A model generated the notes under the pieces. The model was not told where the DNA came from and made no database searches. It was given only the letters and a program-made list of their open reading frames with translations. This document shows, piece by piece, positions 8,982 through 46,800 of a stretch of DNA of 64,000 nucleotides. Made by a program: the position numbers and the translations under genes. Numbering within the stretch: the first letter of the stretch is position 1; each line of letters opens with the position of its first letter. Source of the stretch: Thermoplasmata archaeon (lineage in GTDB: Archaea; Thermoplasmatota; Thermoplasmata; RBG-16-68-12; JAGMCJ01); the NCBI GenBank assembly GCA_046761005.1, contig JBHIFI010000002.1, forward strand, positions 1,914 through 65,913, written 5' to 3'.

Positions 8982-9560
8982 ATGTATCATTATGTTAGGG
9001 ATGCGTGGAAGAAACCCGATGAGGGATACCTCAAAGAATTACAGTGGCAGAGATTGATTGAGTGGAGGAGAGGGCCCTCGTTCCAGAGGGTTGAGAGACC
9101 CACGAGGATAGACCGCGCTCGAGCACTGGGATACAAGGCGAAGCAGGGCTACGTCATCGTAAGGGCAAGGGTGAGAAGAGGAGGCCTACGAAAACCAACG
9201 ATCAGAGGAGGCCGAAGAGCGAAGAGGAAGGGAATAAAGAAGATAACGATGGCAAAGAGCATTCAGAGAATCGCAGAAGAGAGAACCGCCAAGAGGTACC
9301 CTAACCTGGAGGTTCTCAACTCCTATTGGATTGGTGAGGATGGGAGGCACAAATACTACGAAGTCATACTCGTTGACCCGCATCATCCTGTGATAAAGAA
9401 CGATCCCAAGATTTCCTGGATAGGAGAAGGGTCCCACAAAAGAAGGGTTTATCGGGGACTGACGTCCGCTGGAAAGAAGAGTCGCGGTCTAAGGAAGAAA
9501 GGAAAGGGGGCGGAAAAGGTCCGACCGTCCGCAGGAACTCATGACCGTAAGGGGAAGTAG
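8982..9560 (+). CDS. rpl15e: 50S ribosomal protein L15e
   Basis: [68 protein letters not shown] is typical L15e. I start at the internal ATG 8982 (193 aa) rather than the ORF-track 8937, because L15e normally begins M-x-x-Y-(I/V)-R-(D/E)-A-W. Confidence 0.8.
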
Positions 9561-9561
9561 C

Positions 9562-10413
9562 TCACTCCCTTATTCTCTTCAGTAGATTATCTAATTCCTC
9601 TTTGCTCAGCCCGATTGTGGGGTAGAATACTGGAATCCCCTTCGCGGGTGTGTACTTATCCCGGTCCTCCCATGTCGTTACGAATCCTTGACAGCGGGAT
9701 TTATCAATGAGAGGATCTAGGTCAGACCAACTGTCCGGAGAATAGGCTTTCAGGCGGATGTCCCAATTCCTGAGCGGGTCAAAGGTCTCCGACTCGTCAA
9801 AACGCGAGATGTGAACCTTGCATCCCCTCTTCATCATCAGCCATGCTCCTACGAGACCCTCAGAAGAGTCTACAACCGCAAGCACCGCTCCCTGCGTGCC
9901 GAGCGGCATCCCGCCAGGTGCAGGAATTCTCTCGCTGAATACATAGGCGCCTTTTCCCCTCACTTCAATGAAGACCTCAATATCGGGCTGGCTCAAATCT
10001 ACCTCGAGATTCTCGATGCGGGACTGTATCGCCCTTCCTACATAGCTCGCAAGCTCCTGACTCGTGTACTTGTGATCTCCAGTCCTCCTCGTTCTAACGG
10101 CAAATTTCTTTCCCGGTTTCAATTCTGAGCGAAACCTCTTGATCGCGACTTGCGCTATGTCCTCCATGTCAGAACTCGTAGTTTCCGCAACGCTAAATGA
10201 CGTAATACCGAATATTCTGCTCAGAATCTCTGAGGCGTGTCGAATCTCATCTGTATCCAGATAGATTCTTCCATATTCGGACCTCATCATGCACTCCACG
10301 CCCCTATGAAGGAAATAATCCTGTATGTTTGTGACAAGCCTATCCTGAAATTTTCGCCTCACCCAGTTGCTTTTCAGAGCGATTTCACCATATCTTATCA
10401 GGAATCTTGGCAT
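9562..10413 (-). CDS. THUMP-domain protein, ThiI-like with degenerate PP-loop (short tRNA sulfurtransferase paralog)
   Basis: N-terminal ferredoxin-like + THUMP pattern (RYGEIALKSNWVRRKF... KKFAVRTRRTGDHKYTSQELASYVG). The region that aligns to the ThiI PP-loop (GG.P.G..G.VLLLSGGIDSPVAAYLMMKRG) reads GGMPLGTQGAVLAVVDSSEGLVGAWLMMKRG, so the SGGxDS motif is lost. The protein is only 283 aa versus about 380+ for ThiI. Confidence 0.6.
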   Translation of the reverse strand: MPRFLIRYGEIALKSNWVRRKFQDRLVTNIQDYFLHRGVECMMRSEYGRIYLDTDEIRHASEILSRIFGITSFSVAETTSSDMEDIAQVAIKRFRSELKPGKKFAVRTRRTGDHKYTSQELASYVGRAIQSRIENLEVDLSQPDIEVFIEVRGKGAYVFSERIPAPGGMPLGTQGAVLAVVDSSEGLVGAWLMMKRGCKVHISRFDESETFDPLRNWDIRLKAYSPDSWSDLDPLIDKSRCQGFVTTWEDRDKYTPAKGIPVFYPTIGLSKEELDNLLKRIRE

Positions 10414-10484
10414 GTGTCCTCCCCTATGCCATGCTTGGATAATATCTTTCTCGGTAGTTTAATAGTGCTCATATCTATTTCCGC

Positions 10485-11288
10485 GTGATGGAAACTTGGA
10501 CGGCGGCCATCCTTATCACGATGGTCTTCGGTGTAGCCTTCATTTATTCCAACCTAGGTCTAGGCGGAGGTCTTCTGTTCGTCCCCATCCTTCTCTCGCT
10601 CACAACCTATCCCAAGGAAGTCGTCGTGCCGATCTCACTGACCTTCACGATTGCAACATCACTTTCAGCCACGCTGAACCATCAAAGAAAGGGTCTGGTT
10701 GACTTCAATCTCGCTCTCGCTCTCCTTTCCGGAGCGCTTGTCGGTGCAGTTTTCGGAGTACTATTCAATCTCAATGTGCCAAAAGAGGTATTCTACGCGG
10801 TTTTCATTGCCGTCGTCCTTGTCATGGCGTCAAAGATGCTCAGAGACTGGATGCAGAAGGCGAGGGACGAGGATAGCGACGATGTATCCAAGGTGACGAG
10901 GCCTAGAAAGTTTCTGAGTTCCACTGGAACACTTGCCTCAGGATTCACATCAGGGAGTCTCGGCATCGGTGGCGGTCTTGTCAATGTTCCACTCATGGAA
11001 TATGTCTTGGGTTTGGGGGCGAGGAGGGCCATAGGAACGTCAAGCCTGATGATAATATTCACCGGAGCCTTTGGCTTCTTCACTTATCTTCTTCTTGGAA
11101 CTCCGGAGCCAATCGATTTGAATCTGGTGCTAATGCTATGGCCCTTTGTTTTCGTGGGCGCATTCGTCGGCTCCAGATGGGGTCTCGAAAAGCTGAAGAG
11201 CAGGGTCGTGGCTCTTATTTTCATAGTCGTGGTTTTCCTAGCCGCCCTCAAAATGGCACTCGATCTCTATTTCTTCCTTCTGCTGTGA
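10485..11288 (+). CDS. TauE/SafE (DUF81) family membrane transporter (sulfite/anion exporter-like)
   Basis: Two internal repeats, each with the glycine-rich signature (LGLGGGLLFVPILLSL; GSLGIGGGLVNVPLMEYVLGL). About 8 predicted TM helices. Confidence 0.75.
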   Translation: MMETWTAAILITMVFGVAFIYSNLGLGGGLLFVPILLSLTTYPKEVVVPISLTFTIATSLSATLNHQRKGLVDFNLALALLSGALVGAVFGVLFNLNVPKEVFYAVFIAVVLVMASKMLRDWMQKARDEDSDDVSKVTRPRKFLSSTGTLASGFTSGSLGIGGGLVNVPLMEYVLGLGARRAIGTSSLMIIFTGAFGFFTYLLLGTPEPIDLNLVLMLWPFVFVGAFVGSRWGLEKLKSRVVALIFIVVVFLAALKMALDLYFFLLL

Positions 11289-11371
11289 TGTTGGGAGAGT
11301 CAAGTCTTTCTGCCTTCCAGAACTCATGATTCCAAAGGATGTTAGAATGACACCTCTGAGCCTTGCCAGAA

Positions 11372-12034
11372 TCATGCGAACATGGTCCTCGGTGTTGCCG
11401 AAAAGGTCCACTTTTCCTTGTTTTTGTAAAGGTCGCGAAGAAGATTCGTGGCAACTTTTGTCTCCAACTTACTTAGGAGTCTTGCGACATGCTTGCACAT
11501 CAGCTTCTCCGACATCCAAGCTATCCAGTCACCGCAATCATGAGCGAATATTCTTGACTTGAGATCTACTTTAATGAGATACTCCTTGACTCTGGAAACG
11601 ATGTACTCGTCCGTTACCTTATCTATTCTCACTCTGTCATCGAGAATCTCTCTTGAACTCTGGATCCTCTTCCTTCCCACGAAATGGAGCAAGAGGTTAT
11701 CTAGCGAGAGGTTCTCAGGATCTGCATCTTCAGCAAATACAAGATCAGGCGTTCTCTCAGAACCGCCGATAGCCTCCTGAAACTCCTTCGGATCTATTCC
11801 GAATCTCTCAAGGGCCGAATCGATTCTTTGGTCGATGTATAGGCACTCCTCCTCAGTGTATTTCCTTCGGCTCCTGTCCATGCTGAAGAACCTCCGCGCG
11901 AGCTTCGCTCTTCTTGGAGTGTCCAACGGATACTTCCAGTTTTCAGGATCAGCGTACAGTTCTGGATCAGTGGGGAAGCCTGGAGGAGGCCTCATCCATG
12001 CACCTCCCCTTCGGACAGGCCTTTTCCCCTTCAT
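11372..12034 (-). CDS. Hypothetical protein (no recognisable domain); lies immediately downstream of the transposase
   Basis: Uninterrupted 220-codon ORF with plausible composition. The basic/proline-rich N-terminus (MKGKRPVRRGGAWMRPPPGFP) may precede the true start. Confidence 0.4.
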   Translation of the reverse strand: MKGKRPVRRGGAWMRPPPGFPTDPELYADPENWKYPLDTPRRAKLARRFFSMDRSRRKYTEEECLYIDQRIDSALERFGIDPKEFQEAIGGSERTPDLVFAEDADPENLSLDNLLLHFVGRKRIQSSREILDDRVRIDKVTDEYIVSRVKEYLIKVDLKSRIFAHDCGDWIAWMSEKLMCKHVARLLSKLETKVATNLLRDLYKNKEKWTFSATPRTMFA

Positions 12035-12102
12035 CAGAAATCAAACTGCCAACAACTATTCAAAACTTCTTGCAGAAAAGGCTTTGAGACGAAATTACCC
12101 TA

Positions 12103-12987
12103 TCATCCTAGCTGGGAGGAGAAGCCGGGCTTGATTCCGAATAGGTACCTCAGATAGCACAGTCTCTTCAGGTTGTGGCAGCAGGCCCTTGTGAAGGCCT
12201 CCGTGCGTCTTCTCCATCTCAATCTCCGACGAAGGGGGAGAGGGAAATCCCTCTTGAAGATGGAATACCCGCTTTCTGCAATGGATCGGGAGTGATACTC
12301 CCTCAACCATTCCTGAGTGTCACGAATGAAGGAATGAAGCATGTGAATCCACGCATCGCTCCCTTTCCTCTTGAGGGTTATTCCCCTCTTAGGGAAGAGC
12401 CTGGGAGCGGCTCCCAAATCCTCTATGGCAGTGCAGTTCTCTCTTGATAGGAATCCCGCATCCCCGCTGACGACCTCTAGGAAAGAATATCCCTTCGAGT
12501 CCTCCATCATGGAGGGAAGCATTGGAGACTCGTTCCCATCTGGGTTCTCCATCACATGAAAGGAGGAGAAGAGCTTGTATCTCCTTCCTATGGCCGTGAC
12601 TATCTTCTCATACCTTTTAGTCTTCTTTCCTCCCTTCTTGTCCGACTCGTAGTTCCTCTCCATGGACCTCGAGAGTCCTGTGCCGTCAACTGCAATCTCT
12701 TTCTCCACATCTCTGACTGCATCCTGAGTAAGGGAGAAGAGCATATCCAGGAGTTTCCTCACATCGTGATTCTCATACGCTCTTTCGACCGTCTTGTAGG
12801 AGAACACCCTCGATAGGTCAAGCTTCTCCTTGAAGAGAAGGAGGAGGCCCTCCGCCTTCCTGTTGGGCACACCGGAGCCCAAGCAGAGAAAACGAAGCTT
12901 TTCGTAGAGGCCACACGGTGCCAGCTTCCGGCATATACTAATATCCTCTTCTACGTCTGAAAGCCTCCTCAACGAGAACCTGATCAT
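12103..12987 (-). CDS. DDE transposase, IS4/IS5-superfamily-like (DDE_Tnp_1 type)
   Basis: Candidate DDE triad: AVDGTGLS (D1), SGDAGFLSREN (D2), and the C-terminal block YHSRSIAESGYSIFKRDFPLPLRRRLRWRRRTEAFTRACCHNLKRL, which matches the Y..R..IE..F..K ... R-rich ... YNL.R signature of IS5-like transposases. The annotated ATG 12987 overlaps the relE 3' end in another frame; the true start may be the internal TTG/GTG. Confidence 0.7.
   Translation of the reverse strand: MIRFSLRRLSDVEEDISICRKLAPCGLYEKLRFLCLGSGVPNRKAEGLLLLFKEKLDLSRVFSYKTVERAYENHDVRKLLDMLFSLTQDAVRDVEKEIAVDGTGLSRSMERNYESDKKGGKKTKRYEKIVTAIGRRYKLFSSFHVMENPDGNESPMLPSMMEDSKGYSFLEVVSGDAGFLSRENCTAIEDLGAAPRLFPKRGITLKRKGSDAWIHMLHSFIRDTQEWLREYHSRSIAESGYSIFKRDFPLPLRRRLRWRRRTEAFTRACCHNLKRLCYLRYLFGIKPGFSSQLG
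12103..12987 (-). mobile_element. Insertion sequence (transposase ORF span; terminal inverted repeats not identified, ends undetermined)
   Basis: Single DDE transposase ORF. I could not locate terminal IRs or a TSD by eye in 12035-12102 or 12988-13060. Confidence 0.45.
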
Positions 12988-13198
12988 CCTTTATTACGTA
13001 TAGGAATCTGTTATTCCCCAGACGGAGCCGATAGAACGGTTTCTTACCTCTCATCTTCTTGATATCACATCCAGACCGGGTTTTGTATGGGTCATCTGAC
13101 AGTCTTTTCAAACTCTCATAGCATCTTTTTCTCTCACCCTTAGGAAGGGAATCCAGATATTTTTCAACATCTGGATGAAGAAAAACAGAATAACTCAT
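12938..13198 (-). CDS. relE: RelE/ParE-family toxin (type II toxin-antitoxin mRNA interferase)
   Basis: 86 aa. ...KKPFYRLRLGNNRFLYVIKDDQVLVEEAFRRRRGY matches the archaeal RelE fold signature (YR.R.GdyR.iY.v..d..v.il.i..RgraY). It overlaps the upstream RHH gene by 4 nt. Confidence 0.7.
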   Translation of the reverse strand: MSYSVFLHPDVEKYLDSLPKGERKRCYESLKRLSDDPYKTRSGCDIKKMRGKKPFYRLRLGNNRFLYVIKDDQVLVEEAFRRRRGY

Positions 13199-13422
13199 TC
13201 CAAACCTCTAGATCTACCGTATTCTTCAAGAGAGATGTGCTTATCTCTATCCCTCTCCGCCTTTTCGTGCAAGTAGGAAGAAAAATCATCGAATTTCTCA
13301 CGTAATAGTTCTCGAATAAATTCCCCCTTAGAGGTATATTCTCCCCTTTCCACAAGTTCTTCTAGCTCCTCGTATTGAGTTTCCGTCACTCTAACGTTCA
13401 ATGTTCTTGTTTTCGCCGTCAC
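13195..13422 (-). CDS. Ribbon-helix-helix (CopG/ParD-like) antitoxin
   Basis: The translation from the internal GTG (VTAKTRTLNVRVTETQYEELEELVERGEYTSKGEFIRELLREKF...) is a typical RHH antitoxin N-terminus. The ORF-track start is 13452; I prefer GTG at 13422. Confidence 0.6.
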   Translation of the reverse strand: MTAKTRTLNVRVTETQYEELEELVERGEYTSKGEFIRELLREKFDDFSSYLHEKAERDRDKHISLEEYGRSRGLE

Positions 13423-13573
13423 GTGTACCACTGTGTTGCTAATGTAACACACGATTCATATAACTTTCGGTTAGCCAACCATTTACCGCCTACCAAGAAA
13501 ACGAGGGAGGTACGGCTAGGATTTCACTTAACGTTCTATGGGTATCAACTGCGTTGAATGATTCTTGATAGTC

Positions 13574-14455
13574 TCAACGATTCCGAACCGACCAACAGCA
13601 TTTCTTATATTTCTTCCCACTTCCACAAGGACACGGTTCGTTCCGACCTATCTTTTTTCGTTTGGATTTCTTTGGCGTGGTTCTTGACCTTACTTTCTTC
13701 TCGGGTTTAAAACATGCCCACCATTCCATGCAACGTATGGTATCGTCTATGAATTGGTAATGTTCATCGTCTTCAAGACGGATAAGATTTTCTTCCCATT
13801 CCATAGAGAGATGTTCGTTCACATCTTCTAAATTGATGAAGAACGGATCGACTAGACCTTCTTCATGGGCCTTCTTCATATCCTCAAAAACCTCTCTAGC
13901 GCATAGGTCCGAACTACATGCTACCAGTCCGGTCCAAACGAATGAGTATGTTCTTTCAAGTTTTCCTGTAAAGAGACTCTTGTAATAAGCAATTATTTCA
14001 TCCCGTGTTTTCTCACCATTGACTACCAACGTCAAAAGCGCTCTTAAGCCTGCATCTCTCACATATCCATCTGCGTCTCTGCTCTCTATGAGTTGTTCTA
14101 TCAAGGTTGTATCACCTTGGCATACGGATGCGAGAACACGCGGCAAGTCCTCACACACGAACTCCCCGGCAATGCTATCAGAAGTATCCCCCGGGTGAGA
14201 AAAAAGGTCAACTATTAGAGGGTAGGCACGTTTTTCCCTAAACTGTGCAAGCAGAAACATCGAATATATGTGTGCAAAGTAGTCAGGTCTCTCTTTGATG
14301 TAATCAATGTTCCTTTCGGCGTTTTCCAAAATCCTCAGAAGCTCAGGTATGATAACCTCTTTCTGTTTGATGGCCTCCTGGACGGCCTCATAGGGAAATG
14401 AACCTGTATTGTATTCCAATTTTGACAAGATTTCCTGGGTTTCCAGAATAACCAC
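13574..14455 (-). CDS. DUF1186-like protein with C-terminal SEC-C metal-binding motif (YecA/SecA-C-like)
   Basis: The C-terminus [18 protein letters not shown] is the SEC-C motif (the zinc-binding motif at the SecA C-terminus). The gene is about 40% GC versus about 50-55% for neighbouring core genes (hand-counted 60-nt samples). Confidence 0.6.
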
Positions 14456-14563
14456 CTCTTAAGTGCCGGATTCAGCGTAACGGGATGCAGAAGGAGATTG
14501 AATTGCTATACTAAGTAATTTCTCGGTCATGCGCGTTCCGCTGCCTTAGGAAGACACTGGGTA

Positions 14564-14648
14564 TGCGGAGGCGAGGATTCGAACCCCGGAACTCCTTCGA
14601 GACTAGACCCTGAATCTAGCGCCGTTGACCAGACTTGGCTACCTCCGC
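14564..14648 (-). tRNA. tRNA-Leu (anticodon CAG), 85 nt, no encoded CCA
   Basis: Cloverleaf derived by hand: acceptor GCGGAGG/CCTCCGC; D arm GCCA-AGTCTGGTCAA-CGGC; anticodon stem CTAGA/TCTAG with loop TTCAGGG; 14-nt variable arm (class II); T arm CGGGG-TTCGAAT-CCTCG; discriminator A. A TTTTTATT TATA-like box lies about 33 nt upstream. Confidence 0.85.
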
Positions 14649-14718
14649 ATCGAGCGTTTGCTCTAATACGGTGGCGAATAAAAAGCTTGTGAGCGGGAAT
14701 TGAAGAAAAGAAAGTGGT

Positions 14719-14943
14719 TTATCTCTTCCTCTTCATTATTTTCATCCAGCCGCCAGATTCATAGACCTGGAGCCTTCTTCTCTTAAGTGTCGACTCAAAC
14801 TCGTCCCAGGTTATGATTTCCAAGCGGGCATTCTTTCCCTTAGTGAACTGGATGCCGTCCGTTCCTTTTACTCTTCCCGGCTTCAGTCCCTTCTTCTTCG
14901 CTATCTCCATCGCCTTTTCGGGTGTTATTGGTTGCATCACCAT
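14719..14943 (-). CDS. Small basic hypothetical protein (74 aa)
   Basis: Compact ORF (MVMQPITPEKAMEIAKKKGLKPGRVKGTDGIQFTKGKNARLEIITWDEFESTLKRRRLQVYESGGWMKIMKRKR) with coding-like composition. No domain recognised. Confidence 0.4.
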   Translation of the reverse strand: MVMQPITPEKAMEIAKKKGLKPGRVKGTDGIQFTKGKNARLEIITWDEFESTLKRRRLQVYESGGWMKIMKRKR

Positions 14944-15098
14944 TTCTTTCCCTCCGATCTTTCGGTCCTATCTCTGGCTTATAGCCAGACGGTAATTATG
15001 TTATCCATATAAATACTTTTTCGAGCCAGGCTCTCACCAGAGGCAGTTTTAGGGAGCCAAATGAATAAAAATAACTATATGAAATATGATAGGGATTC

Positions 15099-16406
15099 AT
15101 GGGTCTATTCGGTACTTCTGGAATCCGCGGAAGGGTTGGCCGGGAGATCACTATCAATCTCTTCCAGGACGTTGGCCGTGCGGTCGGCACCGACTTCCAG
15201 GATTGCGTTGTGGGACATGACCCCAGGACTTCGAGCGAGATGCTAGAATGTGCTTTCATATCCGGTTTTCTTTCTGCAGGTGGTGATTGCTTTTTGGCGG
15301 GAATGGTTCCCACACCCACACTAGCTTGGGCGGCGAGAAACCACTCCTGCGGAGCAATGATAACCGCTTCGCATAACCCCCCTGAGTACAACGGAATCAA
15401 GCTCTGGAACCCAAACGGGCTTTCATTTGTATCCCGCCAGAGAGCGAGGATCGAGGAACTTATTGAGAAGGGCGACTTTGCCAAAGCCTCGTGGAAGAAT
15501 GTGGGAAGAACAGAGGCAGTAGAGAACGCCATCTCGGAACACGTCGAATCGATATTGAGGAAGGTCAGTGAGTGCACAATCCGAGTCGTCGTGGATTGTG
15601 GTGGGGGTGCAACGTCGGAAACCACGCCTCTGGTTTTGGAAAAAATGGGCTGCGATGTCATGCCATTGAATTGTGAGCCCGATGGGCACTTTCGCAATAG
15701 AAGCCCAGAGCCTATTGAGGAGAATCTGACATCGCTCAAGGAGGCGGTTCTTTCTAGGAAGGCCGATTTAGGAATCGCACACGATGGTGATGGGGACAGG
15801 ATGGTTGCAATCGACGAAAAGGGACACTATGTTGGAGGAGATGTCCTTCTATCAATCTTTGCGACGGAGGAAGTAGAAAACTCTCTTACCGTTCCCATAA
15901 ACGCCTCGATGGCCTTGGACGACATCCTACCTGACGCAAAGATATGGAGGACGAAGGTGGGCGATGTCTATGTCGGAGAGGAGGTGCAAAGGCGCGGGGC
16001 TGATTTTGGCGGGGAACCTTCGGGAACATGGATATTTCCAAAGCACTTCCTGTGTCCAGACGGTGTGTTCGCTGCCGCGAAGCTGGTTAATATCGTCGCT
16101 CGCAAACCATTGTCGGAACTGATAGAAAGCATTCCAAGATATCCCATGATCGAAAGATCGATCTCCTTTGAACCCTCAAGAAAGCAGGAGATAATCTCCA
16201 AACTCAAAGAGGGTATTGAGTGCATTGAATGTATCTCGACTGACACGATTGATGGTTGGCGGCTCGATTTTAAGGATGGTTGGGTTTTGATCAGACCAAG
16301 TGGTACGGAACCCAAGATAAGAATCACTGCTGAGGCCAGGGAAGAGAGTAGAGCAAAAGAAATATACGGCTCGATGATTTCTCTAGCAAGGGAAGTGATT
16401 TCTTGA
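15099..16406 (+). CDS. glmM: Phosphoglucosamine/phosphomannose mutase (alpha-D-phosphohexomutase family, archaeal GlmM-like)
   Basis: N-terminal MGLFGTSGIRG, catalytic TASHNPPEYNGIK (phosphoserine loop), metal-binding DGDGDR. A TATA-like ACTATATGAAATAT lies about 26 nt upstream (leaderless). Confidence 0.85.
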   Translation: MGLFGTSGIRGRVGREITINLFQDVGRAVGTDFQDCVVGHDPRTSSEMLECAFISGFLSAGGDCFLAGMVPTPTLAWAARNHSCGAMITASHNPPEYNGIKLWNPNGLSFVSRQRARIEELIEKGDFAKASWKNVGRTEAVENAISEHVESILRKVSECTIRVVVDCGGGATSETTPLVLEKMGCDVMPLNCEPDGHFRNRSPEPIEENLTSLKEAVLSRKADLGIAHDGDGDRMVAIDEKGHYVGGDVLLSIFATEEVENSLTVPINASMALDDILPDAKIWRTKVGDVYVGEEVQRRGADFGGEPSGTWIFPKHFLCPDGVFAAAKLVNIVARKPLSELIESIPRYPMIERSISFEPSRKQEIISKLKEGIECIECISTDTIDGWRLDFKDGWVLIRPSGTEPKIRITAEAREESRAKEIYGSMISLAREVIS

Positions 16407-38529: not shown

Positions 38530-40806
38530 CTACTTCTCCCTTCTTCTGAAAGATGCTATCACTAGAACTGCCAGTAGGGTGACCGCAACTACTGCGAATG
38601 TGCCGATATCGGGAATAGGTTCGGTCGTGACTACTTCTTTTGGCACAACACCGCCCCAGCCCCTCACGGCGATGTTTGCGAATCCGCTTCCTTCCTGGTA
38701 TCCCTCCTTTTCTGCTGTCACCGTAACCCTGAAGTTCGTGTCGGTCGTGACGTTTCCGGTGAAGGAAGCCGACCATTCTCCATCAGATACCTCTGTGAGC
38801 GTTCCAAGTGTTGTGCCCGCCAAATCCACAGACATGTGAACTGTGCAATTGGCAACGGGAAGTAGGTCCTTATCCGTTATGACTACCGTGACTGTCGTTG
38901 TCTCACCAGAGTTGATTATTGGTGCCGTTCCAGTGACATCGACATCAAGGGGATTGACAGCTGGATGCACTGTTAGCTTGATACTGTCTGAGGCTCCTTC
39001 GTATGTCTGCAGGAATACTGTTGCCTCAATCTCAACATCTGTTGAATCCGAGACGTCTGGAGCAACGTATTTGGTTTCGAAAACGCCCAGTGAATCCGTC
39101 GTCCCACTCGGAGATTCGAAGATCCCGATATCAGCAGAGAGTTCGACATTCACCCCTTCCACACTTGATTCACTTTCGTCAAGCACAAGCACAGTCACAG
39201 TGACGTTGCCACCAGATTCCACGGAAGACTCGGATGTAGACAGCGTTTTTAGCACGAGCGGGCCCACTTGTATCTTGTGGAGGTTTGTGAAAGACCAGAA
39301 GTTGTTTATTCCTCCAGCCATGTCTACCCAGCCCCCATAGACCGTTCTGTTGTAGGCCTCGATTGCATCGTACGAAAGGACGGGAGCAAACAGAACTTTC
39401 TCTGAGATGAGCCCGAGGGCTTGATGAACGTATGTCTGCCTGGTTGCCATGTCTATTGCATCATCCGCCGCATCGAGTGCCGCCGTTATCTCAGGATCGC
39501 TGTAATCAGCAAGCATAGGAATTTCCCTAATGGTAGCGGGCTCGAGGGGAAGCCTTTCCATTGCTAGGTAGATGTCAAAGCCAGAGGGATCCGTGGCCGT
39601 TGTGTTTAGGGAGACGCTAAGCCCGAGCCTATTGAGGAGTCCACTGTAAGCGATTGCTATGTTGGATTTCGTTATGTCCTCTGCAATTGAGGGTCCTAAC
39701 ATTGTCATCTGAAGTGCACTGCCATCTGGTTTTTCTCTCCATCCATCTCCGTCCCTGTCACTATAGTTCAGCCTTTCAAGTTCGAGAAGGCTGGGCACAT
39801 AGTTGGTGTCAGTTTCTCCAGCAGGATTGAGGAATGACCCTGCATTATACTTCACTATGGATCGATTGTACCAGGGCTCATTTTGGGAACTCATCGGTGA
39901 GTGGACTATGATTGTATTTGGCTCCAAAGAGAGGAACAGCTCCTTGTTTATGGCCATGGCCAGAGCCTTCCTAAGTTCTGGGGTTGCCAACTCGTCGATT
40001 GGATTGAAACCAATGAAGAGGTATTCAAGTCCGTAAGTGTAGGAAATCGCGAGCTTTCCTACTTCTGCTTCAGTCATTATACTCTTGTTCTCATATCTGG
40101 CATCGGTCGTATCAGTAGGAGCGAGGGTCCAGCCTATGAAATCAACGGTCCCATTGATTAGCGCATTTGCCGCCGCATCGATGTCTTGATAGACCTTGAA
40201 TTCTATGGTGTCAAGATAGGGTCTGCCATGGAAGTACTCGCTGTAGGCACCAATGGTGACGCTTTCCGCCGTGGTGCCGATGAACTCGAAAGGACCGCAC
40301 CCCTCAGTGGGAGCGGCATCGTCGGACTTAACAAGGGGCTTCTGCAGGCCCTCCGTCATGAACTTCCCTCCGCCACCACCAGAGAAGTCAAAGCGAACCT
40401 CTGTCGGGGAGAGAATGCTCACGTCATAGCCGCCATAGTAAGTTCCGAAGGTGTATTCCACATCCGTCGCAGTAACTGGAGTGTCGTCATGCCAGAGGAC
40501 ATCGGTTCTCAAGACAACGGTCACCGTCTGATTCTCCTGATCCACTGACCAGCTTTCGGCAACCCAAGGCTTTACCTGAAGAGTGACCGGGTCGAGACGT
40601 CCAAGAGAGTCGTACAGAAGGTCAATCATGTGCAAACTAGCTTCATCTGATGCTGTCTTGGGATTCAAATCCAGTGCAGTATCCTTCACAGCAACCCGGA
40701 AGTCTCCTCCGTACAGTCCGGAGATCTCTTCTGGAGTGGCGGCAAAGGCAGAGACAGCGAAACTCAGGACGAAGAGCATCGTCAGTCCGAATGCTAGTGT
40801 TCTCAT
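38530..40806 (-). CDS. Extracellular solute-binding protein, family 5 (oligopeptide/dipeptide OppA/DppA-like), with two C-terminal Ig-like domains and a C-terminal TM anchor
   Basis: Signal peptide MRTLAFGLTMLFVLSFAVSAFA. SBP_bac_5 core (DFRVAVKDTALDLNP..., WHDDTPVTATDVEYTF). About 180 extra C-terminal residues of beta-rich repeats end in a TM plus RRREK. ATG overlaps the subtilase stop (ATGA). Confidence 0.8.
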   Translation of the reverse strand: MRTLAFGLTMLFVLSFAVSAFAATPEEISGLYGGDFRVAVKDTALDLNPKTASDEASLHMIDLLYDSLGRLDPVTLQVKPWVAESWSVDQENQTVTVVLRTDVLWHDDTPVTATDVEYTFGTYYGGYDVSILSPTEVRFDFSGGGGGKFMTEGLQKPLVKSDDAAPTEGCGPFEFIGTTAESVTIGAYSEYFHGRPYLDTIEFKVYQDIDAAANALINGTVDFIGWTLAPTDTTDARYENKSIMTEAEVGKLAISYTYGLEYLFIGFNPIDELATPELRKALAMAINKELFLSLEPNTIIVHSPMSSQNEPWYNRSIVKYNAGSFLNPAGETDTNYVPSLLELERLNYSDRDGDGWREKPDGSALQMTMLGPSIAEDITKSNIAIAYSGLLNRLGLSVSLNTTATDPSGFDIYLAMERLPLEPATIREIPMLADYSDPEITAALDAADDAIDMATRQTYVHQALGLISEKVLFAPVLSYDAIEAYNRTVYGGWVDMAGGINNFWSFTNLHKIQVGPLVLKTLSTSESSVESGGNVTVTVLVLDESESSVEGVNVELSADIGIFESPSGTTDSLGVFETKYVAPDVSDSTDVEIEATVFLQTYEGASDSIKLTVHPAVNPLDVDVTGTAPIINSGETTTVTVVITDKDLLPVANCTVHMSVDLAGTTLGTLTEVSDGEWSASFTGNVTTDTNFRVTVTAEKEGYQEGSGFANIAVRGWGGVVPKEVVTTEPIPDIGTFAVVAVTLLAVLVIASFRRREK

Positions 40807-43800
40807 GGCTCACCCTCCTCTGGTGGCGGGATTTCCTCAGTTGGCTCTTCAGGAGGGACCTCTTCGGCAGGAGGCTCTTCCGGAATCTCAATCTCCTCCA
40901 GTGCTTCCTCCTCTTCCGGAACCTCCTCAACGACCTCTTCTTCAACGGGTGGGATCTCTTCCTCCGGAACTTCCTCCTCAGGCACTGCAGGCTTCTTTCC
41001 CAACGTGAGGCCAATGACAAAGCCAATTACGAGGAGAACGATAGCAAGAGCAGTGAGTATCAATGTTGTCCATGTTTGCTTCGTAACCTTCATCTCCGGA
41101 GACCATGTAATGGATATAGCTTCCGAAGCAACATTTCCCGCCTCGTCCTTTGCTATGACTGTGATTTCGTTGGCGCCGTAGCTGAGGGTAACCTCTTTGC
41201 TGAAGGCTCCGTTCGACGGAACTACTGGAAGACCATTTACCGTCACGATTTCCACGTCGCCTGACACTGTTCCTGTAATGTTAATTCTTGAAACCAAAGC
41301 TTCCCCGGTTATCGGGTCAACGTTGTCCTCAGGAATAGAGACCGTCAGGGTAGGAATGACGGTGTCTCTAATCATGACTGTGTCATTACTGTAGAATGTA
41401 TGGCCTGCGGCGTCAACCGCCTCTATTTCAATAGTGTTCGTGCCTTCCTCCAGCGCTACGGTCGTTTCAAAGCTTCCGTCCTCGTTCACTGGAACAATCC
41501 TCCCAGCGATGGTCAACTCCACAGTCTCGTTGAACTTCCCAGAGATTATGATGGATTCTGCGTTTGTTGGCCGGGCCTGCGACTCAGATGTAATCAGGTA
41601 TTCCAGTACGGGCGGATTCGTGTCAACTGTTATGAGTCTTGTCACAACAGCGGTGTTGCCAGCTTGATCTTGGGCTTCAACGATAAGTGGATTGAGCCCC
41701 TCTGTCAATTGGTCAAACAGATAGGAGAAGGAACCGTCTGGGCTTACGGGCACCTCCTCAGTGCGAATTAGGACAGTCGCTTCAGGCTCGGTGGTTCCAG
41801 TTATCATAGTATAGTTTGTCGGAACGGTGATGTCCGTTGATGGGTAATCAATTTCAAGCAATGGCGCGGTCGTATCTACGTAGAAATGCCATGTCATTTC
41901 TTCTATATTGCCTGCGTAATCTCCAACCTGCGTCTTCACCGTATGCATTCCATCGGCAAGAGGTGCATTTGGAGCATAGCTGACTGTTCCTATTGCATAA
42001 CCACCGAGATCTGAATCGAAGGTTACTGTGACCAACGACATAGCAGTTATGTCAACACCATCCAACCACAAGCCTATCGTTGTTGAATCCATCTCTCCTT
42101 GGCTGTCAGAAAAGCCTGCGAGTATTGGAGGCATGTTATCCGACGTTACTGAACCATCTGGAGGAGTCATTTGGATAACCTCTGGAGGAGTGGTGTCGTA
42201 GTTCAGTTCGACGGGAACGAGAAGCGTCAACGAGAATGGCGTGTTCCCTGGTGATGCAAAGAAGGCTGCTTTAATCACTCCCTCAGGGGTATCCACTGGA
42301 AGGTCCCATTCAAGATTGAGGATTTCGCTGGAGTACCTCTGAATGATATCCGCAGTGTATGTAACTTGGAAGGGCGATGGTCCCACCTTAAGTTCTGTGA
42401 TTATCATGTCCGCAAGTGAGCCGACCCTCCAGATGTCGAAGCCAGCCATCTTGATAATGTATCTACCTGGCGTTGGAAGGACCAGGACTACAGTCTCATC
42501 TGCGTCTGCGTCGGCATCGTACTTGACAAATTCGTCTGCTTGAGCCTCATCATCGCCGTTCTCGTCGAGGAATATTCCGAGGTCCATATCTGGGCAGCAG
42601 TCGACATGTCCCATCAGATGGAACTCTATCGTTATGACTGAAGCATCGACGTCCCAAAGCATGGTGTTCTTTGAACTAGCAAGGTATTCCTGGAAAGTTA
42701 TTTCGCCGGACGTATAGGGCTCCGGGTCATCAAATTCAACTGGAATGTCGAGGAACTCGTGGGTTTCTGAACCAGCAACAGTGACGCCTATCGGCTTGCC
42801 AAAGAACTCGTGGAAAGGATCTGGATTGGGTAACCACGGTAGAGTCGTCGAAAAAATCATCTCGGTTGAGCCCTGCAACTGACTCGTAGCAACATCAATC
42901 GGATAGGGTGTCATGCTAAGAAGACCTGTTTCTCCGGAGATGACATCAGCGGCTTCCTCCCCTTCGACTGTGACTGTTTGCACGATTAGGACGTTAAGAC
43001 CTGCACTAACACTGAGACCCTTGAAGAGACCATTTCCGACTCCCGCCCAGTCTGGAGTCTTCTTGAAGTATCCTGGAGCTCCAACATCCGTTTCGACGGC
43101 CACGAACGGCCCATATCTGCTCTCATTCAGCTTAGAGAAGACAAGGTCGCCAAAAGCAGAAGAACCTTCCTCAGTCGCCTGAGCGAGATGCCGCATATCG
43201 CCATAGGTGTTGTTCCCATCCATACCTATGTCAATTGTGAACTTCATCCCCTCTCTGAATACGAATGTATCAGGAACGTCGAAGAAGTAGTACCTCAAGT
43301 CATACGCGCCTCCGTAACCTCTAAGAGCATTGTTATCGTACAGTGTATCGGAAATAGCGGTTCCTCCGAACTGGAAGTTTGTGGAACCCTCGTGAGCCAC
43401 ATTTATTACCACTGGAATGGTTGTGACATTGTTCTCGTTTGTTAGGCGGATTGCACCCTCATAGAGTCCTATGTCCGTACCTGGCAGCACAGTTGCAGTT
43501 GCTACGAAATCAAATGAGCCGCCTGCGGTTATGTCGATGGTCGGTCCAAGAGGTGTGACACCATCATCCTCATAAAGAGTAACCATCGGCCAGTTCTGGT
43601 GCTCGAAGAACTCAATTGTCACAGTGACGGGTCCGGGTACAGGGGCACCGGCGAGATGCCTCCACCAGATGATTAGTCCATCATGAGTTCTTGCTGCGGG
43701 ATCGTAGACTCTGACCTCGAAGGAGTTCTCACCCAAGTAGACTCCCATCCTGTTTCTTTCAAACCAAGCTCCTGTCACTCCGAAGGGCAGATCTGGATCG

Positions 43801-46800
43801 ACTAGCATCGCTCCTGTGGAGGTCCACCACAGGTCTATCTCACCTCCATAGCTCACCGCCCAGAACCAGTCATAACCAGGTGCGAAACCTACGTCTGTAA
43901 TTCCATAATCATATGTAGGAGTGACAGACGTTATGACTGAATCGGCTAGAATGTCCCAGATTGCCACATCCGTTGCATTGGCAACCGCCAGATACATGTT
44001 GGCCACATCAAAGTCTACACACATTGGATATTCCTGTAACATCGTATATGTTGGCGGGAGATAATCGTACTCAACCGTAACGTTTGCCCCCAACGCGAGT
44101 GTGCCAATGTAGAGCAATATGCCATTAGCGGTATACATGATATAGTCACCCATGCCACTCGCGATGTCAAGCTCGTAGACTGGCGAACCGTCCACCCAAA
44201 CCTGGTATGAGAATGGAACGACGCTCGTGTTCCCTAGGAAGAACACTGGGAAACCTGTGTAGTTGAAGGTGTCATTCCCCGTTGAAGGCGCCAGGGTCAT
44301 ATCCCAGACATTCACCGTTCCAGTGCCAGCCATGCTCCAGTCAGATCCCAATCCTACCGAAGCGAGCCACATGCTGTCAGAGCTGAACCTAAGGTCCATG
44401 ACTCCGTCAGCGTCAGCAGACCAATCGCCATCCTCATGGCCACTAAATCCTCCAATGTATGCACTTGTGGTCGGATCCCAGAGCATTATGTAGTTATCCC
44501 AGATACCGAAGGCGCCGCCGGAACCCGTTGCGATGACGGACCCATCTGGGCTCCATGCAATGGTGTTGACGACTTCAAGATGGCCGCACATCGTTGAAAG
44601 CACATTCCCTGCGAGGTCCATGACAAAGACGTCTCCCAAGAATCCGGGGAGGCAAAAGTCTCGCGGGAGTCCATTTAACCATCTGATGGCTGAGTTGAGA
44701 CTCGAGACATACGCTATCTGACTCTCATTCGCCGGATTGAACTCCACTCCATTGATCGAGTAGCCGAAGAGGAGGTCATCCGAGACTACGATTCGTGAGC
44801 GGGTAGGTACATCCCAGACTGCAACTGCGCCAGAATCGATGGGCCACCCACCCGAAGAGGCCGCTAGCATGCTGCAGTTGGATGAGAAGTCTATGTCATT
44901 GATCATCGTGCCTTCCAACCCTCTTAGCCTGTCAATCGGATAACCGGTTGCATTGTCCCATAGAATGATGATGCCATCCTCCGCACCGGTTGCGAAAATC
45001 GTGCCATCGGAGCAGAAATCCATGGCGGTAACGTTCGCGGAATGCCCAAAGAACCGTTCATTCATGTTGACATCGGTCCAGTCATGCGGTTCTACGTATA
45101 TCATCTGGTTGGTCAGCAGGTCGATATCGAAATGGGCGGTAATTCTGAGAAGGTCCGCATTGTTCCATCTTGTAGCATCCATGTTGGGTCCAAACTTCCT
45201 TCCTAAGAAGTCGTAGAATCCTGTCTCGTTGATGATAGTCCAGTTGTTACCCACGGGCTCTGGCGGTGCTTGAATGGAGGGCTCGAATGCATATTCTATG
45301 GTGCCCATCCTCTTCAGGTAGTCAGCAGAAACTCCAACGTTGGTCAAGTCTGCCGGTCCGCGATTCTCCACCGTAATCATTTCGGAATCAGACTCACCAA
45401 CCGTAAGGAAGTGGACGAAGGCCACATAGTCCTCTCCCCTGTAGTCGCCTGGATACCAGACCTCAGGATCGGCGAGAATACCTCCTCTGTTGCCAGCTAG
45501 ATCAGTGGCGCGCAGGGCATTACCGTACCCATGACCCTGAGTGAAGACATCATAGTTCATATCATCAGCACTTGACAGCAGAATCTTCTGAGCTTCAAAA
45601 GCATCCATGTAATATCCGTGCTCCTGCTCATATGCATCCTGCATGAGTGCGATTACGGCTGTTGCGTGCGGTGCAGCCATACTTGTGCCTGCATCTATGT
45701 CCCATGCAGCAGTCCCATCACGGAATGGGTTCAACGGATAAGCATCATAGACCCAACCACCAGCAAAGCAGATATCAGGACCTAGTTGACCAGTTGCGGA
45801 GGGTCCCCAAGAGGAGAGATAGGCTATCCCGCCGTAGTGGGGATTCGGTCCTCCATCGTATTCAAACTCTGGTTGCACCCTGTAGAAGAGGTCCCACGCC
45901 GCGCAAGCGCTGATGGTTCCTGGTGTGACCGAGTTTCCGGAGGTCCCATAGCCGGTACCCTCATTTCCAGCGGCTTTCACATGGATTGTCTTGCCCTCTG
46001 CGTACTGGGTTGTGACCCAATCTCCATATCTCTCGCCAAGAGTCCATCCTGTTTCAATCGGATTGGAACCGAAACTCCAACTCAATACGAGGCCTTCATC
46101 GCCGGTCCCTGGCACTCCATCATAACCCTCTACACCGAAGAGGAATCCGTGATACTGGGTGAATGCGCCATGCGAAGTCCCCCCGGGTATCGAAATAACC
46201 TTCGCATCAGGTGCCAATCCCATCAGCTTCGGTATACCACCGATAGGAGTCACGCCCTGACCCACGATACTCGTGGCTACAGCTGTTCCATGCGAGCCGT
46301 ATATCGCACCGCTGAAGGCAACCATATCACCGGCGCCCCAGTAGTAGTTGTCCACTCCCAGGCGTCCTGCGACGATATCCGAATAGGGTATTGGTACAAC
46401 ACCGTAGGAATAATTCACAGTGATGACATCGAAGCTTTCAAGTGGATATGTGAATGTGAAGTTCCCCGTCACCCTGTTCAGAATCCATGGGTGGTACTCG
46501 TAGGTCGCTCTGGCAATACCGCCAGGCGGCAGTCCATTGGACAAAGTAATGAGACCTTCTGTGTAGTCAACTGTGTAATCATCTCCCGTCACCAATTTGC
46601 CCTCAGCATCGTTCCAATCATTTCCTTCAATAAGAACTCCATCGTAACTGTAGTTAGCCCAGAAGGTATCTCCTGGCATATTGACTATGAGGGGGTCCGG
46701 ACTACTCAGAAGTTCAGCTCCAAGCACGACCTCGCCCGTTCCTGCATCAGCGGCGTAATTGCCGGGATCGATTTCTGTAATCACAGGTCCAAACCAGTCC

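Follow-up and report, generated by a model that had tools for sequence, protein, structure and literature searches.

Beside the gene for tRNA-Leu(CAG) in a Thermoplasmata archaeon lies a stretch of lineage-specific DNA of 2.48 kb (about 12080-14563). Coordinates refer throughout to a 64,000-nucleotide (nt) segment of contig JBHIFI010000002.1 (assembly GCA_046761005.1, positions 1,914 to 65,913, forward strand), hereafter the window. The stretch is probably a mosaic insertion that entered, in this lineage, an ancestrally short spacer between the tRNA gene and the promoter of a gene for a 220-amino-acid (aa) protein, hyp220, and that consists of two pieces of different origin. One piece is a 1.6-kb low-GC segment carrying a DUF1186/SEC-C gene and a type II toxin–antitoxin (TA) operon of the archaeal RelE kind, in which a ribbon-helix-helix (RHH) protein is paired with RelE. 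The other is what remains of an IS5-like insertion sequence (IS) of ~1.45 kb: its 3' 798 bp, with an intact right end lying against the hyp220 promoter. The original prediction, made from the letters alone, had described a low-GC islet at 11372-14563 made up of five minus-strand genes of horizontally acquired cargo next to a minus-strand tRNA-Leu(CAG). An open reading frame (ORF) listing reproduces all five ORFs at those positions (Table 1), ARAGORN and Rfam find the tRNA with an intact cloverleaf, and profile searches (Pfam/NCBIfam) place TauE on the left flank and glmM/glmU on the right. Pfam and NCBIfam also confirm the domain labels it had given (DDE_Tnp_1, RHH_1, DUF1186 with SEC-C, TauE and glmM), while the toxin, which stays below the Pfam threshold, matches the solved structure 1wmi_A (E 1e-5). 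The extent of the islet had to be redrawn. It is smaller, starting at about 12080, and hyp220 belongs to the core, as its presence in three relatives (L005, L006 and L007) makes clear.

The boundaries come from comparison with relatives. A GlmM scan of a genome collection yielded 80 Thermoplasmata/Methanomassiliicoccales loci, most of which share the gene order tRNA-Leu(CAG), 74-aa gene, glmM and glmU. Of the four genomes closest to the window, three extend across the site, namely L005 (80% GlmM identity) and L006 and L007 (74%), and in these the spacer between hyp220 and the tRNA measures 281, 90 and 520 nt, respectively. None of the three has the transposase, RelE, RHH or DUF1186 gene at the site, and none of these four cargo genes is found at this position in the 80 loci. 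In DNA alignments, similarity to the relatives breaks off exactly at the 3' end of the tRNA, which is nearly identical in the window and in L004-L007, and again ~45 nt upstream of the hyp220 start codon. A concatenated GlmM and GlmU identity matrix separates two groups: within the first (the window, L004 and L005) identities are ~82%, and L006 and L007 share 94% with each other and ~78% with the other three. Since the cargo is absent in both groups, the difference is polarised as a gain in the window's lineage. The DNA directly 3' of this tRNA-Leu differs in each relative examined, and the spot tolerates change. When metagenomes were scanned with hyp220 in search of a nearer relative or a site lacking the insertion, only homologues of 30-44% identity in unrelated contexts came back.

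Base composition separates the pieces. Judged against the 37 other long ORFs of the window (GC 49.4 +/- 1.4%; GC at third codon positions, GC3, 0.551 +/- 0.025, minimum 0.497), the interval holds three compositional classes: hyp220 is host-like, the TA and DUF1186 genes are low, and the IS fragment is high in GC3. The z scores for GC3 of relE, rhh and the DUF1186 gene range from -4.5 to -6.3, and rhh and the DUF1186 gene show the worst codon-usage fit. The sole low-GC portion of the interval is 12938-14562 (43.0% vs 49.1% for the window), with steps at ~12.9 kb and ~14.5 kb (300-nt resolution); the lowest 1-kb stretch of the 64 kb is 13001-14000 at 41.4% GC, and the second lowest has 45.6%. 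The GC3 of the transposase ORF lies above that of every reference gene, which argues that its origin differs from that of the low-GC piece. A low-GC islet is thus found at ~12.94-14.56 kb but does not include hyp220, with its host-like composition, or the transposase, with its high GC3. Likewise, the description as horizontally acquired cargo suits four genes, which are lineage-specific and compositionally foreign, and does not suit hyp220, which is inherited. Uniform GC together with conserved synteny, the pattern named beforehand as speaking against acquisition, is found for hyp220 and not for the other four genes.

The high-GC3 piece is the remnant of an IS. The transposase ORF matches DDE_Tnp_1 at 36.7 bits (Pfam cutoff 23) and its best NCBIfam model is an IS5 family transposase; in NF033579 the window ORF scores 64.4 bits and its full-length relative P0122 scores 74.6 bits, both under the cutoff of 140. 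The label of DDE transposase is therefore right as to the domain, but the 294-aa ORF is not an intact gene. It is a 255-aa remnant plus read-through: its homologues of ~348-350 aa align to its last ~255 residues only, the NCBI annotation of the transposase here is 255 aa long, and the first 39 codons, which lack homology, are a chance upstream extension running into the 3' end of relE. P0122 (86% identity) lies in contig L085. There, an element of 1451 bp is bounded by perfect 18-nt terminal inverted repeats (GGCTTTGGGACAAAATTA) and encodes a 350-aa transposase together with a 98-aa ORF on the opposite strand. Aligned with this element (blastn, 12877-12080 of the window), the remnant retains the right terminal inverted repeat at 12080-12097 (GGCTTTGAGACGAAATTA) and a coding-sequence remnant at about 12103-12870 (codons 94-349 of 350). 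Missing is the left ~650 bp, that is, the left inverted repeat, the 98-aa ORF and about 92 codons. No left-hand IS sequence was found in the whole window by pattern search, by blastn with word size 7 or by tblastn, for which the queries were the 98-aa ORF and the complete transposase, and there is no second copy of the inverted repeat with up to 3 mismatches near the locus, whereas L085 has both. Because its left third is deleted, the remnant can no longer transpose. Compared with L085, the fragment shows a ratio of nonsynonymous to synonymous substitution rates (dN/dS) of 0.16 at a dS of 0.47 and is so far free of frameshifts; the low ratio suggests that most of the divergence built up while the element was still functional. 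The intact end stops 45 nt from the hyp220 start codon and leaves the conserved upstream block whole, and the truncated end faces the TA module.

A repeat search also drew attention to an inverted repeat at 12067-12091 / 12954-12978 as a candidate second IS end, which we rejected. Its 12-mer CGTCTGAAAGCC at 12954-12965 equals the terminal tip of the IS at 11 of 12 positions, in inverted orientation. The 12-mer lies inside conserved C-terminal codons of the toxin (AFRR), and no homology to the IS left end exists between it and 12877; for both reasons it is not taken as an IS end, and its likeness to the tip appears coincidental. In its DDE_Tnp_1 domain and best NCBIfam model the element resembles IS5-family ISs, and its relative in L085 has a length of ~1.45 kb and 18-nt perfect terminal inverted repeats. 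It differs from the curated IS5 subgroups in scoring far under the NCBIfam equivalog cutoffs (74.6 vs 140 bits), and from the family in the 98-aa opposite-strand ORF of the full copy; the copy in the window is one-ended and 798 bp long. On the minus strand of L085, the 98-aa ORF occupies 28-324, between the left inverted repeat and the gene for the transposase, and it matches no family in Pfam or NCBIfam.

How the two pieces came to lie 3' of a tRNA gene is the point on which explanations diverge. In the manner of genomic islands, the stretch adjoins the tRNA 3' end and its cargo is absent from L005-L007, and the original prediction had taken it for DNA inserted at the tRNA gene. One may thus think of a decayed integrase-type element, derived from a plasmid or virus, which entered the 3' end of tRNA-Leu site-specifically and was afterwards stripped of the integrase, of most of its gene content and of the distal attachment (att) repeat. 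Such an element would explain why the cargo begins right at the tRNA 3' end, where homology to relatives ends; TA modules and IS elements are typical of such elements, and the differing DNA 3' of the tRNA in every relative suggests a recombination-prone spot. We nevertheless regard this as unlikely. No integrase domain was detected in the five ORFs (Pfam, NCBIfam), and no other ORF of at least 40 aa in 11289-14563 has such a match. ARAGORN places the tRNA at 14563-14649, one nucleotide wider on either side than Rfam, and Rfam reports the tRNA alone in 10000-16000. A 22-mer from its 3' end, with up to 3 mismatches allowed, recurs nowhere in the whole window outside the tRNA itself; a 24-mer, sought in either orientation across 9001-14562, has a best match of 17/24; and blastn with word size 9 finds no repeat of the 3' end. 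These searches bear out the earlier remark that neither an integrase nor a repeat of the tRNA 3' end was to be seen. In addition, a search of a phage collection with the DUF1186 protein gave no match, and the opposite compositional deviations of the two pieces are left unexplained by a single element. With no integrase, no tRNA 3'-end repeat and no phage relative, insertion as a classical tRNA-integrating element is not supported. The stretch does resemble the integrase-mediated islets known beside archaeal tRNA genes in its site 3' of the tRNA, its absence from relatives, its partly deviant composition and its TA and IS genes. It differs from them in having no integrase and no duplicated tRNA segment, in measuring 2.5 kb only and in combining two compositions. 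The insertion behaves like entry into a permissive spacer, not like site-specific integration.

Two other explanations do without any insertion in this lineage. If the TA, DUF1186 and IS genes were ancestral, they would have been deleted independently in the lineages of L005 and of L006/L007. Deletions do occur in this interval (the window lacks the nitroreductase and TPR genes kept in L005 and L007), and the comparison genomes that cover the site number only three. Yet differential loss needs at least two independent clean losses, leaving unrelated short spacers; the low-GC genes lie 4.5-6.3 standard deviations under host GC3, whereas long residents should have drifted to host composition; and 0 of the 80 loci have these genes at the position. 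We hold this scenario to be quite improbable. Still less credible, in our view, is an assembly or binning artefact, in which a low-GC piece of another organism was joined in at the conserved tRNA and at the IS, a repeated sequence. The genome was assembled from a metagenome, and tRNA and IS sequences are classic chimera points. Moreover, the Logan contigs of three runs (L001-L003) all begin within the tRNA, precisely 30 nt (k-1) from its 3' end (window 14592), and end inside the IS fragment (L001 at ~12278), so that the assembly graph branches at both places. Against this, the outer flanks (TauE/hyp220 and the 74-aa gene with glmM) both show synteny to the same set of relatives, with comparable identities, and a chimera would therefore need two compensating false joins. 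The three independent Logan assemblies match the window at 100% identity over the last 30 nt of the tRNA, the DUF1186, RHH and RelE genes, the IS fragment and the junction between the low-GC piece and the IS, and branching of the graph is to be expected anyway at a tRNA shared by co-occurring relatives. The Logan agreement alone does not prove continuity across the locus. The branch points at the tRNA and the IS could also reflect strain variation at the site.

Several observations also count against a mosaic gained in the window's lineage. The nearest available genomes are at ~82% protein identity, and the gain is polarised by three relatives from two clades; L004, the closest member of its trio, stops 65 nt beyond the tRNA and is uninformative for the site. 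With one IS end only, there is no target-site duplication to check, and the genome is, as said, assembled from a metagenome. Finally, close homologues of the DUF1186 gene have 35-39% GC, even in a Thermoplasmata locus (L087) of 48.7% GC, which fits repeated transfer from a low-GC pool; the window's own gene, at 43% GC, is not as AT-rich as these.

We still favour the two-piece insertion. In its favour, the cargo genes have the look of mobile DNA in other genomes too: close DUF1186 homologues are AT-rich and have TA modules, an integrase-core (rve_3) fragment, restriction-modification genes and plasmid transfer genes as neighbours, and the toxin–antitoxin pair stands by itself in other archaeal genomes. 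From the arrangement of the pieces we infer an order of events and a route of transfer that may have taken either of two courses. The IS may have landed in the permissive intergenic spacer; a later deletion, or an event of illegitimate recombination, that had one of its endpoints within the IS would then have joined it to the DNA with the TA and DUF1186 genes. Alternatively, a ready-made mosaic may have come from a related archaeon, the conserved flanks (the tRNA and hyp220) serving for homologous recombination. The interval appears to have lost DNA as well. In L005 (437-1818) and L007 (6885-8233), genes for a nitroreductase (189 aa) and a TPR protein (258-269 aa) lie between TauE and hyp220. 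Because they are present in both of the nearest clades, outgroup logic on the GlmM and GlmU matrix points to a loss of ~1.5 kb in the window's lineage, with 83 nt left. Aligning this TauE/hyp220 spacer to the relatives in search of a deletion scar was uninformative.

Table 1. Features at the tRNA-Leu(CAG) locus, listed from right to left. GC3 is GC at third codon positions; reference genes are the 37 other long ORFs of the window.
Feature	Coordinates	Strand	GC (%)	GC3	Evidence and remarks
tRNA-Leu(CAG), intact; 3' end is right-hand insertion boundary	14564..14648	minus			ARAGORN; Rfam RF00005, 49.1 bits
Spacer, tRNA 3' end to DUF1186 start codon	14456..14563	minus	48.6		dissimilar to relatives' spacers (alignment)
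DUF1186 + SEC-C protein, 293 aa; low-GC cargo	13574..14455	minus	43.3	0.435	PF06685, PF02810; z -4.5; lower than all 37 reference genes
RHH (CopG/Arc/MetJ-type) antitoxin	13195..13452	minus	41.9	0.419	PF01402, 31.6 bits; lower than all 37 reference genes
Probable archaeal-type RelE toxin, 86 aa, full length	12938..13198	minus	40.6	0.391	1wmi_A and 3bpq_B matches; lower than all 37 reference genes
Junction of 60 nt, toxin stop codon to start of IS homology	12878..12937				blastn homology to L085 stops at 12877
Transposase ORF, 294 aa	12103..12987	minus	51.8	0.658	higher than all 37 reference genes
IS5-like 3' remnant, dead	12080..12877	minus			86% nt identity to L085 654-1451
hyp220 upstream region, kept in relatives; left-hand insertion boundary, abutted by IS end	12035..12079	minus			alignment
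hyp220, clade-specific core gene outside the islet	11372..12034	minus	48.7	0.552	orthologues in L005, L006, L007; z = +0.05, host-like
TauE/hyp220 spacer, 83 nt	11289..11371				~1.5 kb instead in L005 and L007

The gene on the left of the insertion, hyp220, had been called an orphan hypothetical, a description that no longer applies: L005, L006 and L007 have orthologues at the same position beside tRNA-Leu with 67-77% identity. Its dN/dS against L005 is 0.13, similar to that of glmM. Positional conservation, this purifying selection and host-like composition make it an inherited core gene and not part of the cargo. The protein has two domains, a DUF6582-like part at residues ~1-90, which is subthreshold (PF20223, 23.9 bits, cutoff 27.3), and a second domain at residues ~105-213. 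It shares a domain with 341 clusters, and a near-full-length alignment is obtained in only ~8-10 of the clusters listed; each half recurs by itself or in fusion with other domains across hundreds of protein clusters. A Cys...CxH pattern (HDCGDW...MCKH) is present in the C-terminal half.

In the TA operon, rhh comes first, followed by relE on the same strand with a 4-nt overlap. The true start of the antitoxin is probably the GTG at 13431, which gives 78 aa; Logan gene calls contain both lengths, 85 and 78 aa, and homologous RHH partners of 72-76 aa lie upstream of related toxins. With the Pfam ParE_toxin model the toxin reaches 18.7 bits, under the 23-bit cutoff. Searches with phmmer link it to two archaeal proteins of solved structure, the RelE of Pyrococcus horikoshii (1wmi_A, E 1e-5) and RelE3 of Methanocaldococcus jannaschii (3bpq_B, E 0.011), and NCBI names the identical protein a RelE/ParE family toxin. 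Its 76 homologues are nearly all 86-87 aa long and cover the whole query, and its C-terminus (VLVEEAFRRRRGY) fits the family consensus; being full length with a consensus C-terminus, the toxin gene has been left undamaged by the IS. Those homologues that carry names are all archaeal (Thermoplasmata, Candidatus Saliniplasma, Methanomicrobia and Euryarchaeota), and the pair of an RHH protein with an archaeal RelE (aRelE) recurs in L094-L098, in L097 and L098 as a stand-alone module.

RelE toxins cleave mRNA in a ribosome-dependent manner, and they are neutralised and auto-repressed via their antitoxin. By analogy, the pair in the window is expected to work as RelE systems do, with the RHH antitoxin both neutralising the toxin and repressing its own operon, and such a pair would help to hold the segment in the genome. 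The closest known systems are the archaeal RelE-RelB pairs, with P. horikoshii aRelE-aRelB (1WMI) and M. jannaschii RelE3 (3BPQ), which are alike in toxin size (86 vs 88-90 aa) and in their two-gene operon with the antitoxin first. The pair in the window differs in that the N-terminal domain of its antitoxin is a ribbon-helix-helix (PF01402). For aRelB of P. horikoshii, a review of antitoxins (PMC4803016) gives the DNA-binding fold as unknown.

The largest gene of the low-GC piece encodes a protein that matches both PF06685 (298.1 bits, cutoff 22) and PF02810 (38.9 bits, cutoff 20.4) over their full length, as in the Pfam architecture of a DUF1186 domain with a C-terminal SEC-C motif. Its promoter presumably lies within the spacer between the tRNA and its start codon. 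Relatives are numerous, with 4247 at E<=1e-3 among 8000 candidates scored. It had been considered bacterial-type, and the relationships do not bear this out: the nearest relatives (69-76% identity) are metagenome proteins, and among those with names Thermoplasmata (71%) and Methanophagales (70%) are nearest, ahead of Poribacteria and Chloroflexi. The gene was not found in L004-L083. An AlphaFold2 model (pLDDT 91.8) shows an all-alpha, HEAT/ARM-like helical-repeat solenoid that is followed by a disordered linker rich in Lys (residues 254-265) and, at the C-terminal end, by a zinc knuckle, whose CxC...CC residues are invariant in a 49-sequence alignment. The protein is accordingly predicted by the model to be a helical-repeat scaffold with a zinc knuckle. 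A Foldseek search of the PDB with the model gave no match at E<=1e-3, returning only generic HEAT/ARM/TOG repeats, and a literature search on DUF1186 found no paper. Archaea are not known to have SecA or SecB, so a SecA-type role of the SEC-C motif is inapplicable here.

For the surroundings of DUF1186 genes, we inspected 15 distinct neighbourhoods from archaeal metagenome-assembled genomes and bacterial plasmids, a small sample biased to accessory regions. A RelE/ParE-family TA pair is the immediate neighbour in five of the 15 (the window, L094-96, L092, L093 and a Legionella conjugative plasmid), in eight there is a TA module of some kind no more than three genes away from the DUF1186 gene, and an MmeI-type restriction-modification gene adjoins it in two. 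The TA modules seen near it (L087-L096, L126-L134) are RelE/ParE, HicAB, MazEF and MNT/HEPN; further neighbours are MmeI-type restriction-modification genes, transposase or integrase-core (rve_3) fragments and plasmid transfer genes. PADLOC matches of the protein are confined to the 24-39 aa SEC-C motif, outside the DUF1186 domain, a SEC-C motif being part of a PADLOC candidate; the TA proteins and hyp220 have no PADLOC matches. On its own, the SEC-C motif is also part of Rugutis, a validated antiphage gene of lactococci (PMC11381338). That the DUF1186/SEC-C protein is a functional companion of TA, restriction-modification or plasmid-maintenance modules strikes us as doubtful. Possible roles include defence, anti-defence or that of a TA-accessory factor, which would bind partners via the solenoid and zinc knuckle. 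Because gene order and TA family vary among the contexts, a fixed operon is unlikely. The default reading is that the genes simply reside together in accessory islands, and we treat the neighbourhood of DUF1186 with TA and restriction-modification genes as a lead, not a finding.

Other genes of the region deserve brief mention. Between tRNA-Leu and glmM, the 74-aa gene (s74, 14719-14943) has no Pfam or NCBIfam family; it is kept next to glmM, at 60-93% identity, in almost all of the 80 loci. In L007, a Cys-rich 86-aa DUF2769 ORF lies on the opposite strand between hyp220 and tRNA-Leu (9124-9384). Elsewhere in the window, the ORF partition includes a single ORF of 2752 aa at 40803-49061 on the minus strand.

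Altogether, the locus carries a real, lineage-specific but ordinary accessory insertion, a small genomic islet of a familiar sort. Its annotated transposase is a dead fragment, and the long ORF given for it is an artefact of read-through into the toxin gene. On a small scale it exemplifies genome flux in archaea: a single interval of 3 kb has gained 2.5 kb and, it seems, lost 1.5 kb with no integrase signature. Beyond annotation hygiene the significance is slight; a wider reach lies only in the neighbourhood that DUF1186/SEC-C genes share with TA and restriction-modification genes, in archaea and on bacterial plasmids.

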